Shown: piece by piece, positions 31,597 to 37,449 of the stretch | Numbering within the stretch: the stretch's first letter is position 1 | How the letters are laid out: each line of letters starts with the position of its first letter | From: an uncultured Actinomycetota bacterium | GTDB lineage: Bacteria > Actinomycetota > Actinomycetes > Mycobacteriales > Jatrophihabitantaceae | DNA length: 64,000 nucleotides | NCBI GenBank assembly: GCA_963779485.1 | Contig: CAVZYJ010000014.1 | Location: 61,960 to 125,959, forward strand | Direction of reading: 5' to 3' | The notes under the pieces: generated by a model | Seen by the model: the letters and a program-made list of their open reading frames with translations, nothing else | Told to the model about the DNA's origin: nothing | The model's database searches: none | Position numbers and translations under genes: made by a program

Positions 31597-31620
31597 AACA
31601 TCAGCCAGCTGGCTGATGTT
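31597..31620. promoter_or_regulatory. Perfect 24-bp palindrome AACATCAGCCAGCTGGCTGATGTT (copy 1 of 4)
   Basis: Self-complementary. It shares the core ATCNGCCAGCTGGCNGAT with 33401, 37300 and 37432. Confidence 0.6.
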
Positions 31621-31846
31621 GCGTCACGCGGCGGCCGGCAGAGTGGATCCAGTGGAGATTCGGATAGCCCTCGACACAGTCGAGCCGCCGGCCGGCCGGG
31701 TGCGGCGGGTATCGGCCGATGATTGGTCGCCCGGTGGTCAGGGCGAAGGGATCCCCTTTGTTGGTTGGCTGGGCCTGCTGCGAGCGCTCGACGAGCTGAT
31801 GGCGTCGCCCGACGACGCCGCTCCGCAGGATGCCGACCAGTAGCAT
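31616..31846 (+). CDS. Possible small protein (76 aa) immediately upstream of the decayed LuxR paralogue
   Basis: The ATG lies inside palindrome 1. Sequence MLRHAAAGRVDPVEIRIALDTVEPPAGRVRRVSADDWSPGGQGEGIPFVGWLGLLRALDELMASPDD...; the stop is 5 nt before ATG 31854. No RBS was seen. Weak call. Confidence 0.35.
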
Positions 31847-31853
31847 CCGCGGC

Positions 31854-33344
31854 ATGCCCGTCGCAGGACCGTTGACGGCCTTGTACGGGCGGGCGGAGGG
31901 GGGAGCGGCGCTCGTCGCCTGGCCTCGGGGCGACCGGCGCTGGCCTCGTCGAGGGCGAGGCCGGCATCGGCAAGACCGGCTGCTCAGCGAGACGCTGGAC
32001 CGGGCCGCAGCCGAGGATTCAGGTTGCGGTCGGGCACTGCGAAGAGCTGGAGCAGACCGTCCTTCGGGGTCTCGCCGCGCCTCGTATGCACTCGCGTCGC
32101 GATCCGCGGCGCGCCACCGCCCGACGAGGGTCCGATCACCGTGACGAGCGATCCCGGCCTCCAGTTCCGCGCGGTGGACGCCGTCGTCGACCTGGTCGCG
32201 CTGCACACGCCACTCGTCATCGGACTGGACGACCTCCAGTGGGCCGATCCGTCCAGCCTGCTGACGATCAGCACGATCGGCCGTCGCCTGGCCGACCTCC
32301 CGGTAGCGCTCATCGGGTGTTACCGGCCGGCGCCGCGCTCACCCCAGCTAGAGCGGACGGTCGAGTTCCTGCGGGCCGCGAGTGCTCAGGAGCTGAGTGT
32401 TGGCCCGCTCGGCGAGTACGCCGTGGTCGAGTTGGTCGCGGAGATGGTCCCCGCTGAGTGCGGTGAGACGTACAACCTGATAGTCAGCCGCGGCGTGCTG
32501 GCGTTGATCTTCTTCCATCGAAATGACCTTGCCCGCGTTGAGCAGACCGCTGAGGTGGCTGTGCGTCAGCTTGCTGCGACCGGCGCTCGATATCGCGCGC
32601 AGTGGGCGATGTGCGCGCAGGCGCTCGTCCTGAAAGCTCAGGGCAAGATCGCGGAAGCATATGCGACCTCGTCCGAGAGCTGGGATTTCTGCGCCGACCT
32701 CGGGCTGGCGCTGGAGTACCGCGTGCTCGGGCCTGAACTCGTTCGTCTGGCGCTCGCCGTTGGCGACCGGGAACGCGCTGGGGTCGTGTCGGCCGCCGTC
32801 GCCCAGCTGGCGGCAGGCAACAACCTGCCGTCGCTGACCGGCACCGCCTTTGCGCTGCCAGGGATTGGTCGACGGCGATCCGGAGATCCTGAGCGCGGCT
32901 GTCGACGCTTACGCGCGCAGTGCGCGGCTTCTGGAACGGGCGCAAGCCTGCGAGGACGCGGGCGCGGCTTTCGCTCGACAGCGCCGGGTAGATCGGGCTC
33001 GGCCCCTGCTGCGTGACGCCCTCGAAGCCTACGAACGGCTCGACGCCGCTCGCGACGTTGCGCGCACAGAGGCTGGGGTACGCGCTGCTGGCTTCCGGCC
33101 CGGACGCCGTGGAGAGCGCAGCCGGCCACGTGACGGCTGGCCGAGCCTTACGCCGACCGAGCAGACGGTCGCGCAGCTCGTCGCCGAGGGCCTGTCCAAT
33201 CCGCAGATTGGCGATCGTTTGTTCGTGTCGCGCCGGACCGTGCAGACCCACCTCTGGCATGTGTTCGCGAAGCTGGACGTATCGTCTCGGGCCCAGTTGG
33301 CCGCTGAGGTCATGTGCCGCAGCGCGGCCGATCTCGCACGCTGA
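31854..33344 (+). pseudogene. Decayed paralogue of the AAA+/LuxR regulator at 34417..37275 (frameshifts plus large internal deletion)
   Basis: Homologous blocks lie in three frames:
- LVEGEAGIGKT (P-loop)
- RLLSETLDRAAAED
- GPITVTSDPGLQFRAVDAVVDLVA...VIGLDDLQWADPSSLLTISTIGRRLADLPVALIGCYRP
- a direct jump to ...ALIFFHRNDLARVEQ...GARYRAQWA...
- RCQGLVDGDPEILSAAVDAY...LTPTEQTVAQLVAEGLSNPQIGDRLFVSRRTVQTHLWHVFAKLDV (LuxR HTH)

The span is 1491 nt, against 2859 nt for the intact copy. Confidence 0.85.
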
Positions 33345-33400
33345 CCCGAAGGAGAACCCTCGGGTCCGGATCTCGTTGCGCGGCCAGCCGCGGTCGAGGA

Positions 33401-37275: not shown

Positions 37276-37299
37276 CCCTCGGGTCGCCCAATCCCGCAT

Positions 37300-37317
37300 A
37301 TCCGCCAGCTGGCGGAT
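37300..37317. promoter_or_regulatory. Perfect 18-bp palindrome ATCCGCCAGCTGGCGGAT (copy 3 of 4)
   Basis: 25 nt after the LuxR stop. Preceded by AACCCTCGGGTC, as copy 2 is, which indicates paralogous DNA. Confidence 0.6.
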
Positions 37318-37431
37318 GTCTCGTTCGGGACGCTTGGCGCACGCTGCACTGGCCGACGAAGCGTCGTTGCAGCTTTCGCGCCGGAAGTCCACTGCTAGAG
37401 GGAAAGGCCTAGCCACGAGGGCACAGGCCAA

Positions 37432-37449
37432 ATCGGCCAGTTGGCCGAT
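37432..37449. promoter_or_regulatory. Near-perfect 18-bp palindrome ATCGGCCAGTTGGCCGAT (copy 4 of 4), upstream of whiB7-like gene
   Basis: One central mismatch. Followed by GTCTTGG, as copy 2 is followed by GTCTTCG. It lies 37 nt before the uORF ATG and 60 nt before GTG 37509. Confidence 0.6.

Follow-up and report, generated by a model that had tools for sequence, protein, structure and literature searches.

An 18-bp palindrome predicted to serve as the shared operator of an expanded LAL regulator subfamily in uncultured soil Actinomycetota

We describe an 18-bp palindrome, with consensus ATCnGCCAGCTGGCnGAT, that is likely to be the shared operator ('LAL box') of one expanded subfamily of LAL regulators in uncultured soil Actinomycetota and to function through class II-type activation. 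Four copies lie in the window, the 64,000-nucleotide stretch of actinobacterial DNA analysed here, around an intact and a degenerate LAL gene and ahead of a gene for a WhiB7-type regulator of antibiotic resistance. The candidate operator and its regulon are new and uncharacterized, although of a known kind, and our literature search found no paper containing the box sequence. The features of the window that bear on this reading are listed below; promoter hexamers and start sites are predictions.

31597 to 31620, unstranded: box P1, between the FMO gene and the operon of a small ORF and the LAL pseudogene; an equivalent box is present in a sister strain (L243, 6927-6944).
31639 to 31644, + strand: -10-like hexamer CAGAGT, occupying +22 to +27 after P1; transcription is predicted to begin at the GTG at 31652, without a leader.
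31652 to 31843, + strand: conserved small ORF of 63 aa, first gene of the putative box-driven operon.
31841 to 31846, + strand: -10 hexamer TAGCAT, 8 nt ahead of the ATG of the LAL pseudogene.
31854 to 33344, + strand: LAL pseudogene, disrupted by frameshifts and by an internal deletion (about query residues 226-643); the HTH sequence is intact.
33401 to 33418, unstranded: box P2, 56 nt past the pseudogene stop, with GTCT on its right; box and flanks are also present in a second sister strain (L244, 276-293).
33440 to 33445, + strand: -10-like hexamer CAGTCT, at +22 after P2, from which a start at about 33452 is predicted.
33488 to 33909, + strand: small ORFs of 88 aa (33488-33754) and 46 aa (33769-33909), downstream of P2.
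34407 to 34412, + strand: -10 hexamer TAGCAT upstream of the intact LAL; the GTG at 34420 starts 8 nt past its last T.
34417 to 37275, + strand: intact LAL of 952 aa, with Walker A (GEAGIGKT) and Walker B (VIGVDDLQW) motifs, a TPR_MalT sensor region and, at the C-terminus, a GerE/LuxR HTH.
37300 to 37317, unstranded: box P3, 24 nt past the LAL stop; found in this strain and not in L243 or L244.
37340 to 37345, + strand: -10-like hexamer CACGCT (the family consensus), at +23 after P3; predicted start about 37352.
37432 to 37449, unstranded: box P4, whiB-proximal, with a CAGTTG centre; identical, including the T variant, in L243 and L244.
37471 to 37476, + strand: -10-like hexamer GACCCT, at +22 after P4 and unchanged in all three strains; predicted start about 37483.
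37486 to 37512, + strand: uORF MRVRDERR of 8 codons, the stop of which overlaps the called whiB start (GTGA).
37509 to 37841, + strand: WhiB7-type gene; its product has an EPWGVWGGEIF motif and, at the C-terminus, the AT-hook RKRPRGRPRK.

The original prediction had reported four palindromes in this region, each directly followed by GT(C/T)T, and both observations were reproduced. The core of P1 (31600-31617) is ATCAGCCAGCTGGCTGAT, within the perfect 24-mer AACATCAGCCAGCTGGCTGATGTT; P2 is ATCGGCCAGCTGGCCGAT, P3 is ATCCGCCAGCTGGCGGAT and P4, with one mismatch, is ATCGGCCAGTTGGCCGAT. Allowing up to three mismatches, the window contains five box matches against 0.43 expected by chance (s.d. 0.69), a number reached in none of 100 shuffles; the fifth match, at 63815 with three mismatches, is probably a chance occurrence. 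The 10-mer core GCCAGCTGGC is present in the first three copies only. A half-site search returned 10 matches against 5.3 expected, of which an extra one at 34362 was dismissed because it has no -10-like hexamer at the correct distance. The predicted surroundings of the copies also hold: AACCCTCGGGTC precedes the second and third copies (33356-33367 and 37273-37284), P3 follows closely on the LAL stop codon at 37275, and P4 ends 59 nt before the called whiB start at 37509. The gene identities agree as well (FMO, LAL pseudogene, 952-aa LAL, WhiB with AT-hook, MarR and MFS).

The box recurs in many uncultured soil actinobacteria and was present in every type of related locus that we fetched, nearly always less than about 300 nt from one end of a homologous LAL gene (AAA_16-TPR-GerE). 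An extended 22-mer matched at least 120 metagenome contigs, at least 103 of them with 60% GC or more. Among the matches listed, a LAL homologue was found on 62 of the 103 high-GC contigs (median length 3.4 kb) and on none of the 17 low-GC ones. LAL genes are found within the flank of 35 of the 44 boxes that have at least 1 kb of it, and within 3.3 kb of 12 of the 14 boxes with at least that much sequence on both sides; on two long contigs (L133 and L196) the box is present with no LAL inside this distance. Loci selected through their LAL proteins only (L001-L003 and L246-L248; 137 kb with nine LALs) show the same association, as all six of their boxes fall within 300 nt of a LAL end, a zone that makes up about 3.9% of the sequence, and none elsewhere. 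Ahead of a LAL gene the box stands 270-281 nt from the start (36 of 43 cases); behind one, it stands 23-155 nt from the stop. Among the matches listed when contigs were scanned with the bare 18-mer, which were single, chance-level and spread across all phyla, L115 alone was informative; the chance loci in unrelated high-GC genomes were reused as a negative control.

The intact LAL combines an AAA_16 P-loop NTPase domain (E = 3.7e-21, residues 12-173) with a C-terminal GerE HTH (E = 3e-13, residues 891-943). Between these the large protein matches TPR_12 at 32.2 bits, over the cut-off, and TPR_MalT at 41.5 bits (E = 1.3e-10), under the Pfam cut-off of 45 bits. The solved domains closest to its HTH are those of LiaR, VraR, VpsT, DosR and NarL, and DNA-binding domains of this type bind inverted repeats as dimers. 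Its recognition helix is SRRTVQTHLAHVFIKL; the box-linked helix, RTVQTHLAHVFAKL, is at least 90% invariant among the 120 best LAL homologues, in which the TPR region is the most variable part. At L115 the same helix and box occur together, though the LAL there is only 38-54% identical, and other LuxR-type regulators at the same loci have different helices and no box. The proposal that the dyad is a protein-recognition site fits its invariance across paralogues and lineages and the lack of co-variation at its N positions. Likewise, the proximity of boxes to LAL ends and their co-occurrence with one recognition helix argue for the LAL as the linked factor, as had been suggested.

The LAL family is hugely expanded, with dozens of paralogues that have an essentially identical box and helix. 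Its specificity is not accounted for by one box and helix in so many paralogues, and another common factor could bind. In a plasmid protein search (PLSDB), LAL relatives in cultured actinomycetes reached at most 35% identity, and the few source labels attached to homologues are Streptosporangiaceae or Actinomycetota MAGs. Assignment of the LAL to anti-phage STAND or BREX ATPases was rejected, as the PADLOC matches cover the HTH only (residues 882-935) and Pfam BrxC_BrxD scores 16.5 bits, under its cut-off.

Promoter-like sequence accompanies the box at a fixed distance. The pattern nAnnnT begins at +22 or +23 after the box in 54 of 104 dereplicated flanks and in 0-6 at any other offset, and in the control set of chance 18-mers it occurs in 3 of 60 flanks. 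The hexamer is found on at least one side of 48 of the 55 dereplicated boxes and on both sides of 16; it is typically CACGCT, 21-22 nt past the box. On the FMO-facing side of P1 the corresponding hexamer, CCAGCT, is missing the required A. GTCT is conserved on the promoter side of the box only, where it occupies the -35 position; GT counts (1 of 60 control flanks) are inflated in the metagenome set, which was selected for GTCT on one side, and the unbiased loci show the same trend. These promoters are without a recognizable -35 element and their -10 hexamers are weak and predicted by pattern alone; a simple consensus scan of 31400-38500 found no canonical sigma-70 promoter.

If transcription starts 7-8 nt past the hexamer, the box would be centred at -42.5 to -43.5. 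This assumption about the start is backed by a conserved leaderless small ORF, whose start codon is at +34 to +36 past the box in almost all of about 50 non-identical loci (+32 in one). Class II activators, as at the lux and tra boxes, bind at about -43. The box is probably part of an activator-type promoter at fixed -10 spacing, and more than an operator that happens to lie close by.

The small ORF belongs to the predicted LAL-box module. Its 62-aa family has the consensus MEIRIxLDRVEPPAGRLR...F(T/V)GWLGLLRALYEV, and differences between loci fall mostly at third codon positions. All 161 homologues are hypothetical proteins of soil MAGs and metagenomes, and searches of Pfam, NCBIfam and PADLOC returned no match. 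An AlphaFold model (pLDDT 72) has two short strands and one helix, with no fold match by Foldseek in the PDB. The LAL start codons have an upstream motif of their own, GTAGCATCCGG, in 31 of 44 non-identical loci, and the intact LAL of the window is probably transcribed as a leaderless message from its own TAGCAT promoter. Downstream of P2 the predicted transcript would instead have a 5'UTR with a Shine-Dalgarno sequence (GAGGAGG) ahead of the ATG at 33488; the 88-aa ORF is kept in L244, and in L003 an ORF related to the 46-aa one follows a box.

We propose that a dimer of C-terminal GerE-type HTH domains binds the 18-bp dyad in promoters ordered as box, GTCT, 17-18 nt and a weak -10 hexamer (nAnnnT), and that the activator, bound at about -43, would recruit RNA polymerase. 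The full module would consist of a box that reads into the leaderless 62-aa ORF and then the LAL, in some cases with a divergent target on the other side of the box, followed by a second box and a downstream target; the LAL would additionally be driven by its TAGCAT leaderless promoter. In the window, P1 would drive the small ORF and the LAL pseudogene, P2 the two small ORFs, and P3 and the conserved P4 both the WhiB7-type gene, with the P3 transcript running through P4 and the uORF into whiB.

The WhiB7-type protein has the expected domain (Pfam Whib, E = 4e-15; C-x-C-x2-C...C with EPWGVWGGEIF), and its AT-hook RKRPRGRPRK scores 16.9 bits with Pfam AT_hook, just under the 17.4-bit cut-off. 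Both sister strains retain P4, GACCCT and the uORF ahead of whiB, the uORF with one synonymous change, and homology among the three strains begins about 28 nt upstream of P4. The wider whiB neighbourhood differs between the sister strains, with breakpoints near boxes, and P3 came in with the LAL 3' end. Because L243 and L244 have P4 ahead of their whiB orthologues but no intact LAL alongside, control is probably exerted by the LAL family in trans and not just by the adjacent gene. The WhiB7-type regulator is therefore probably a member of the LAL-box regulon that the adjacent LAL can control, as, probably, can paralogues in trans. The original prediction that whiB7 is under LAL control is supported on comparative grounds by a box in promoter geometry conserved in two sister strains, with the refinement that the neighbouring gene is probably not the sole source of control. 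In L155 and L225 a box precedes another, independent WhiB7-type gene. From P4, the predicted start would give the uORF AUG a leader of just 3 nt, an awkward arrangement for translation. We found no paper linking LuxR or LAL control to whiB7.

We think it unlikely that the box is the regulatory site of a factor other than a LAL, such as the 62-aa protein, a global regulator encoded elsewhere or a dedicated sigma factor for which box-GTCT is the -35 element, in which case the LAL operons would be merely prominent members of its regulon. A binder of this kind would be consistent with one box common to dozens of paralogues, with a small ORF that is always the first gene behind the box, with GTCT at the -35 position on one side only, and with the LALs of L247 and L248, which have the same recognition helix yet no box within 10 kb. 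However, the box tracks one LuxR-type recognition helix even where overall LAL identity is low, and a perfect 18-bp dyad is atypical of a sigma -35 element. The 62-aa protein has no DNA-binding signature and its modest model resembles no PDB fold; moreover, the small ORF is absent at boxes directly behind LAL stop codons. Two further candidate binders were rejected: MarR, since the MarR-MFS intergenic region has no box and many box loci have no MarR gene, and WhiB7, which targets AT-rich DNA.

If a LAL is the binder, it could in principle repress rather than activate, either as a repressor or autorepressor or, at P4, as a roadblock to transcripts from P3; we regard this as improbable. Some LAL regulators do repress, for example SCO6993 (PMC9628970), and P4 does lie inside the transcript predicted from P3. 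Yet the box ends 21-22 nt upstream of the hexamer, overlapping neither it nor the predicted start, and promoters with no -35 element and weak -10 hexamers are typical of activator dependence. The predicted position, about -43, is that of class II activators.

We give very little chance to a mobile or duplicative LAL cassette for which the boxes would serve as terminal inverted repeats or recombination sites, their adjacency to promoters being incidental. The boxes do bracket LALs with the GTCT extensions pointing outwards (L155, L202, L204 and the pseudogene of the window), in a hugely expanded family, and both the breakpoints near boxes and the joint movement of P3 with the LAL 3' end would suit such a cassette. 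Against this, the sequences outside bracketing boxes are unrelated and show no target-site duplications, the gene tables of L001-L003 and L246-L248 contain no transposase by the box-LAL units, and single boxes stand before target genes without a second copy. Fixed outward spacing to -10-like hexamers and start codons is unexpected of transposon ends, and the box has stayed the same although the proteins between boxes are now only 60-70% identical, which implies selection on the box itself. A group II intron RT is present in L001, away from the box-LAL units.

Scarcely credible is an RNA hairpin that terminates or stabilizes LAL transcripts or attenuates whiB: the copies fold at -18 to -22 kcal/mol (z -2.7 to -3.9), P2 and P3 lie just past stop codons and P4 falls within the predicted P3 transcript, but there is no U tract, a terminator scan was blank at the boxes, an Rfam search gave no relevant match, many boxes are upstream of leaderless genes, where they would escape transcription, and the N4/N15 pair is symmetric in 27 and asymmetric (non-complementary) in 28 of the 55 dereplicated boxes, so that sequence is conserved and not pairing.

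Activation by LALs would place a varied set of genes under the box. Naive calls of the first downstream ORF included many spurious high-GC ORFs, and we used only long ORFs confirmed by Pfam; genes beside boxes encode MFS, MMPL and ABC transporters, a BBE oxidase, alpha/beta hydrolases, a PPDK_N protein, PNPOx and WhiB7-type proteins. More speculatively, and with considerable doubt on our part, each genome of this lineage may contain many STAND-type LAL paralogues, with differing TPR sensors and one helix and box, that constitute a single combinatorial chemical-defence network, in which the 62-aa protein is an obligatory partner and the boxes are recombination hot-spots. Were this so, any activated paralogue would turn on other LALs, efflux and detoxification genes and WhiB7, and identical boxes would shuffle LAL-promoter cassettes before new genes, such as whiB here.

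LAL regulators are numerous in actinomycetes, yet the DNA site has been defined, or the signal identified, for very few of them. For an entire LAL subfamily we can now propose a sharply defined 18-bp operator, together with the geometry of its promoters and a set of candidate target genes. Synthetic DNA makes LAL recognition, the role of the micro-protein and the sensed ligands testable despite the uncultured hosts.

The candidate circuit at whiB would be a transcriptional input into a WhiB7-type intrinsic-resistance regulator unlike the canonical circuit of uORF attenuation and autoactivation. In the canonical case (PMC10274678), whiB7 follows a long 5' leader that contains both an alanine-rich uORF and a Rho-independent attenuator, and regulation of whiB7/wblC involves a distal start site, these leader elements and autoactivation by WhiB7. 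The gene of the window is likewise preceded by a short uORF, but this is only 8 codons long, is free of alanine and runs into the whiB start. So close to P4 does the conserved upstream unit begin that a long leader or attenuator would not fit, and no terminator-like site was found there. We also saw no AT-rich site, and it is the LAL box that adjoins the -35 region.

In its architecture the LAL box resembles the sites of the LuxR-family activators LuxR and TraR. The lux and tra boxes are dyads of 18-20 bp (18 bp for the tra box) that are centred at about -42, replace the -35 element and can serve divergent promoters, with the regulator encoded beside its targets and autoregulating. The LAL box has in common with the LuxR and TraR systems a GerE/LuxR-type HTH, a perfect or near-perfect 18-bp dyad and a regulator gene beside the candidate targets; its predicted centre, at about -43, would correspond to theirs, and service to divergent promoters and autoregulation are likewise predicted. 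However, its sequence is unrelated, with CAG/CTG central rather than near the ends, the candidate regulator is a STAND-type ATPase of 950 aa that senses through TPRs and is not an acyl-homoserine-lactone receptor, one box is common to many paralogues, and starts and activation are predicted only.

The protein itself has the AAA_16 P-loop, TPR_MalT and GerE order of MalT and of actinomycete LALs such as PikD, RapH, AveR and SCO6993, which usually activate adjacent genes. MalT binds asymmetric MalT boxes, whereas the LAL box is a long invariant dyad at fixed promoter spacing; the candidate targets are efflux and detoxification genes and whiB7 in place of a sugar regulon or biosynthetic cluster, and there is a companion leaderless micro-ORF. 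SCO6993 recognizes short palindromes both at its own promoter and at those of its targets and acts there as a repressor; a consensus site was not derived (PMC9628970). The regulators with the closest solved HTHs, including DosR/DevR, NarL, LiaR and VraR, are response regulators switched by phosphorylation, whereas the LAL switch is presumably nucleotide- and ligand-dependent oligomerization of the STAND protein. By analogy only, MarA, SoxS and Rob of E. coli are paralogous activators with different inputs that share one marbox before efflux and detoxification genes; they belong to the AraC family and use an asymmetric, degenerate box, and the LAL paralogues are only predicted to converge in this way on each other's boxes.

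All four copies of the palindrome (P1 to P4, each an 18-bp LAL box) that the original prediction had placed around the LuxR paralogues and before the whiB7-type gene were found where it put them, P4 with one mismatch, and its gene map agrees with our gene calls and domain search. The features are as follows.

FMO-like gene, minus strand, end at about 31557
31600-31617, P1 box, inside a perfect 24-mer (31597-31620); -10-like hexamer CAGAGT at 31639-31644
31652-31843, small ORF, before the LAL pseudogene
31854-33344, LAL pseudogene
33401-33418, P2 box; -10-like hexamer CAGTCT at 33440-33445
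Two small ORFs between the LAL pseudogene and the intact LAL
34417-37275, intact LAL, 952 aa (AAA_16, TPR_MalT, GerE)
37300-37317, P3 box; -10-like hexamer CACGCT at 37340-37345
37432-37449, P4 box, one mismatch; -10-like hexamer GACCCT at 37471-37476
37509-37841, WhiB-domain protein with C-terminal AT-hook RKRPRGRPRK
37850-39950, MarR gene (convergent) and DHA2-type MFS pump gene, after the WhiB7-type gene

At up to three mismatches the window holds five box matches against 0.43 expected, of which the fifth (63815, three mismatches) is probably due to chance; a window search found the core GCCAGCTGGC nowhere else in the 64 kb. The 500-nt non-coding stretch before the intact LAL also carries a perfect 18-bp tandem repeat, GGCCGGCGACTGTCCGGA, in 2.6 copies (34060-34106).

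We assessed the linkage between box and LAL from both directions. Homologues of the LAL number more than 2,000, hundreds of them at 63-72% identity, and nearly all come from soil metagenomes or MAGs, a few labelled Streptosporangiaceae or Actinomycetota; one contig carries several. Loci L001-L003 and L246-L248 were picked through their LAL proteins, the box not being a criterion. They contain nine LALs in 137 kb. Six boxes with at most one mismatch occur there, every one no more than 300 nt from a LAL end, and the rest of the 137 kb has none. In L001, each of two LALs has a box 45 nt past its stop, and the genes behind these boxes code for a BBE oxidase and an MFS pump. The box of L002 separates the LAL from a divergent ABC transporter, a LAL pseudogene in L003 is flanked by boxes on both sides, and in L246 a box lies 297 nt before the LAL, which is followed by an additional, degenerate box with the correct geometry.

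The reverse search, a metagenome scan with ATCNGCCAGCTGGCNGATGTCT, matched at least 120 loci. Among the matches listed, 103 loci have at least 60% GC (median length 3.4 kb), and a LAL homologue is present on 62 of these 103 contigs and on none of the 17 low-GC contigs. Where the listed matches extend at least 3.3 kb to both sides, a LAL lies within that distance for 12 of 14 boxes. On two long high-GC contigs (L133 4886, L196 4793) the 22-mer has neither a LAL within 3.3 kb nor a -10-like hexamer at +22/+23, and such copies could be orphan sites or simply matches by chance. A genome scan with the bare 18-mer gave, among the matches listed, single chance matches across all phyla, with the exception of L115, an uncultured Actinomycetota MAG in which two good and two weak boxes accompany a LAL of only 38-54% identity.

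L001 and L003 share the same box-BBE-oxidase junction, which lies behind an intact LAL in L001 and behind a LAL pseudogene in L003, with about 5.7 kb missing in L001; the difference points to recombination between tandem paralogues of the LAL. A group II intron RT is encoded at 15043-16299 of L001.

To define the surroundings of the box, we oriented every copy both ways and dereplicated, yielding 104 flanks. Directly past the box, positions one to four are G in 79, T in 88, C in 79 and T in 57 flanks, and an nAnnnT hexamer starts at +22/+23 in 54 of the 104 versus 0-6 at any other offset. The usual hexamers are CACGCT and CAGGCT, with AACGAT on the small-ORF side. Chance matches to the 18-mer in unrelated high-GC genomes, used as a control, have the hexamer in 3 and GT in 1 of 60 flanks. 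At least one side of 48 of the 55 dereplicated boxes carries the hexamer, and both sides of 16 do. If transcription starts 7-8 nt past the hexamer, the box would span about -52 to -35 with its centre at -42.5 to -43.5, and GTCT would occupy the place of the -35 hexamer. This predicted placement would match that in class II promoters with a lux box or tra box.

The first gene after the box, before the LAL, is a conserved ORF of about 62 aa (consensus MEIRIxLDRVEPPAGRLR...F(T/V)GWLGLLRALYEV; about 50 metagenome loci, window 31652-31843, L003 15445-15636). On the LAL side of upstream boxes it starts at +34 to +36 in nearly all of the roughly 50 non-identical loci (+32 in one), 8 nt past the hexamer, as a leaderless mRNA would have. 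The 161 detectable members of its family are all hypothetical proteins without a Pfam or NCBIfam match; the structure model (pLDDT 72) has two short strands and one helix, with no fold match. A different, very basic small ORF family (MYxHLTxIEADxRRxxIAxEFR...) lies behind boxes at two loci (window 33769-33909; L003 15102-15248, minus strand).

Directly before the LAL start codons, GTAGCATCCGGnnn is present in 31 of 44 non-identical loci (in the window, hexamers at 34407-34412 for the intact LAL and 31841-31846 for the pseudogene). Being a good TAnnnT hexamer at a distance of 8 nt from the start codon, it probably marks an additional, leaderless promoter of the LAL itself; the hexamer position favours GTG 34420 over the called 34417 as start of the intact LAL.

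We consider it likely that the LAL box is bound by HTH dimers and serves as a site for class II activation. Dimers of the LAL HTH on the box would activate transcription in class II fashion, the small-ORF and LAL operon behind the box would be positively autoregulated, and the TAGCAT promoter would provide basal LAL expression beneath this autoregulation.

The protein itself offers a further line of evidence. The solved domains nearest to the LAL HTH are the DNA-binding domains of LiaR, VraR, VpsT, DosR and NarL. In the best 120 of the more than 2,000 homologues, variation is greatest in the TPR region, and at least 90% invariance is seen in the recognition helix (S+RTVQTHLAH.FAKL). This helix is present in every LAL near a box, that of the distant L115 included; in the remaining LuxR-type regulators of these loci, as in the different LAL of L245, the helix differs and the box is missing. 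The co-occurrence of helix and box is the strongest computational argument, short of proof, that the LAL HTH reads the box, and it supports the original prediction of the adjacent LAL-type LuxR as binder. Set against it, binding by some factor other than the LAL appears unlikely, the small protein being a weak alternative. Alongside the predicted class II geometry, a LAL that binds the box as a repressor is improbable too. Outward-facing boxes and local rearrangements would fit a LAL cassette with the boxes as its terminal repeats or as sites of recombination, but we found neither a transposase nor a target-site duplication, and the promoter spacing also speaks against this very improbable reading. 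Least probable of all is an RNA hairpin: box hairpins would be stable if transcribed, a terminator scan showed no U tract after the box, Rfam gave no match, and the dyad is conserved in sequence, not in pairing potential (N positions complementary in 27 and non-complementary in 28 of 55 boxes).

We also compared the WhiB7-type gene with loci L243 and L244 of sister strains, whose WhiB proteins are 90% and 95% identical to that of the window. P4 with its CAGTTG variant, GACCCT and an 8-codon uORF are unchanged in both, and homology to the window begins only about 28 nt upstream of P4. At the place of the window's LAL and P3, L244 has a TMEM175 gene; in L243 a LAL remnant is fused to the end of this gene. 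By this comparison P4 and whiB are a conserved unit, and the LAL with P3 is a strain-specific arrival, with a AACCCTCGGGTC tail that the pseudogene and P2 have too. Since the sister strains keep the P4-whiB unit without the window's LAL and P3, whiB control cannot rest on the neighbouring LAL alone. The original proposal of LAL control over the WhiB7-type gene is supported and refined by this comparison, with probable control in trans by the LAL family as well. All three strains retain, directly downstream of the WhiB7-type gene, a MarR gene that converges on it and the divergent gene of a DHA2/EmrB-type MFS efflux pump (L243 8340-10440; L244 2310-4404).

The uORF (MRVRDERR, 37486-37512) ends in a stop that overlaps the called start of whiB (GTGA). 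The strong Shine-Dalgarno sequence of the uORF, GGAAGGAG, would be transcribed only from P3 and not from P4. Canonical whiB7 control involves a distal start site, an alanine-rich uORF, an attenuator and autoactivation (PMC10274678), none of which is recognisable at the window whiB. Independently, L155 (9980-10900) and L225 (minus strand, box at 1329) have the box followed by the gene for a basic 50-aa protein (MRQVRTSKRRR...DPRDPDIVRAK). Next comes a second WhiB7-type gene, whose product has an AT-hook and a long tail at the C-terminus; the arrangement is divergent from a small-ORF and LAL operon. The DPRDPDIVRAK motif also occurs in a box-proximal ORF of L136. In L245 (3072-6330) a different LAL (920 aa, WHD_MalT) directly precedes another WhiB7-type gene (61% identical) and ABC transporter genes, and the 18-bp box is absent at this locus; adjacency of LAL and whiB7 may recur with other operators.

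Among the products of genes behind boxes, where Pfam-confirmed, are MFS, MMPL and ABC transporters, a BBE/FAD oxidase, alpha/beta hydrolases, a PPDK_N and a PNPOx-type protein, and DUF6069 and DUF3995 membrane proteins. The PPDK_N protein resembles rifampicin phosphotransferases. Taken together, the genes suggest efflux and detoxification functions, in keeping with the capture of a WhiB7-type gene.

In the literature searched we found neither the box sequence nor a link between a LAL and whiB7, and homologues on plasmids of cultured organisms have at most 35% identity. We rate as new the predicted operator of an uncharacterised LAL subfamily, together with its predicted regulon. The window protein has the architecture features of the LAL family, for which the known binding sites in the literature are heterogeneous. 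The predicted mechanism of the LAL-box promoter is like LuxR/TraR class II activation, and the network logic may be like that of MarA, SoxS and Rob, which share the marbox.
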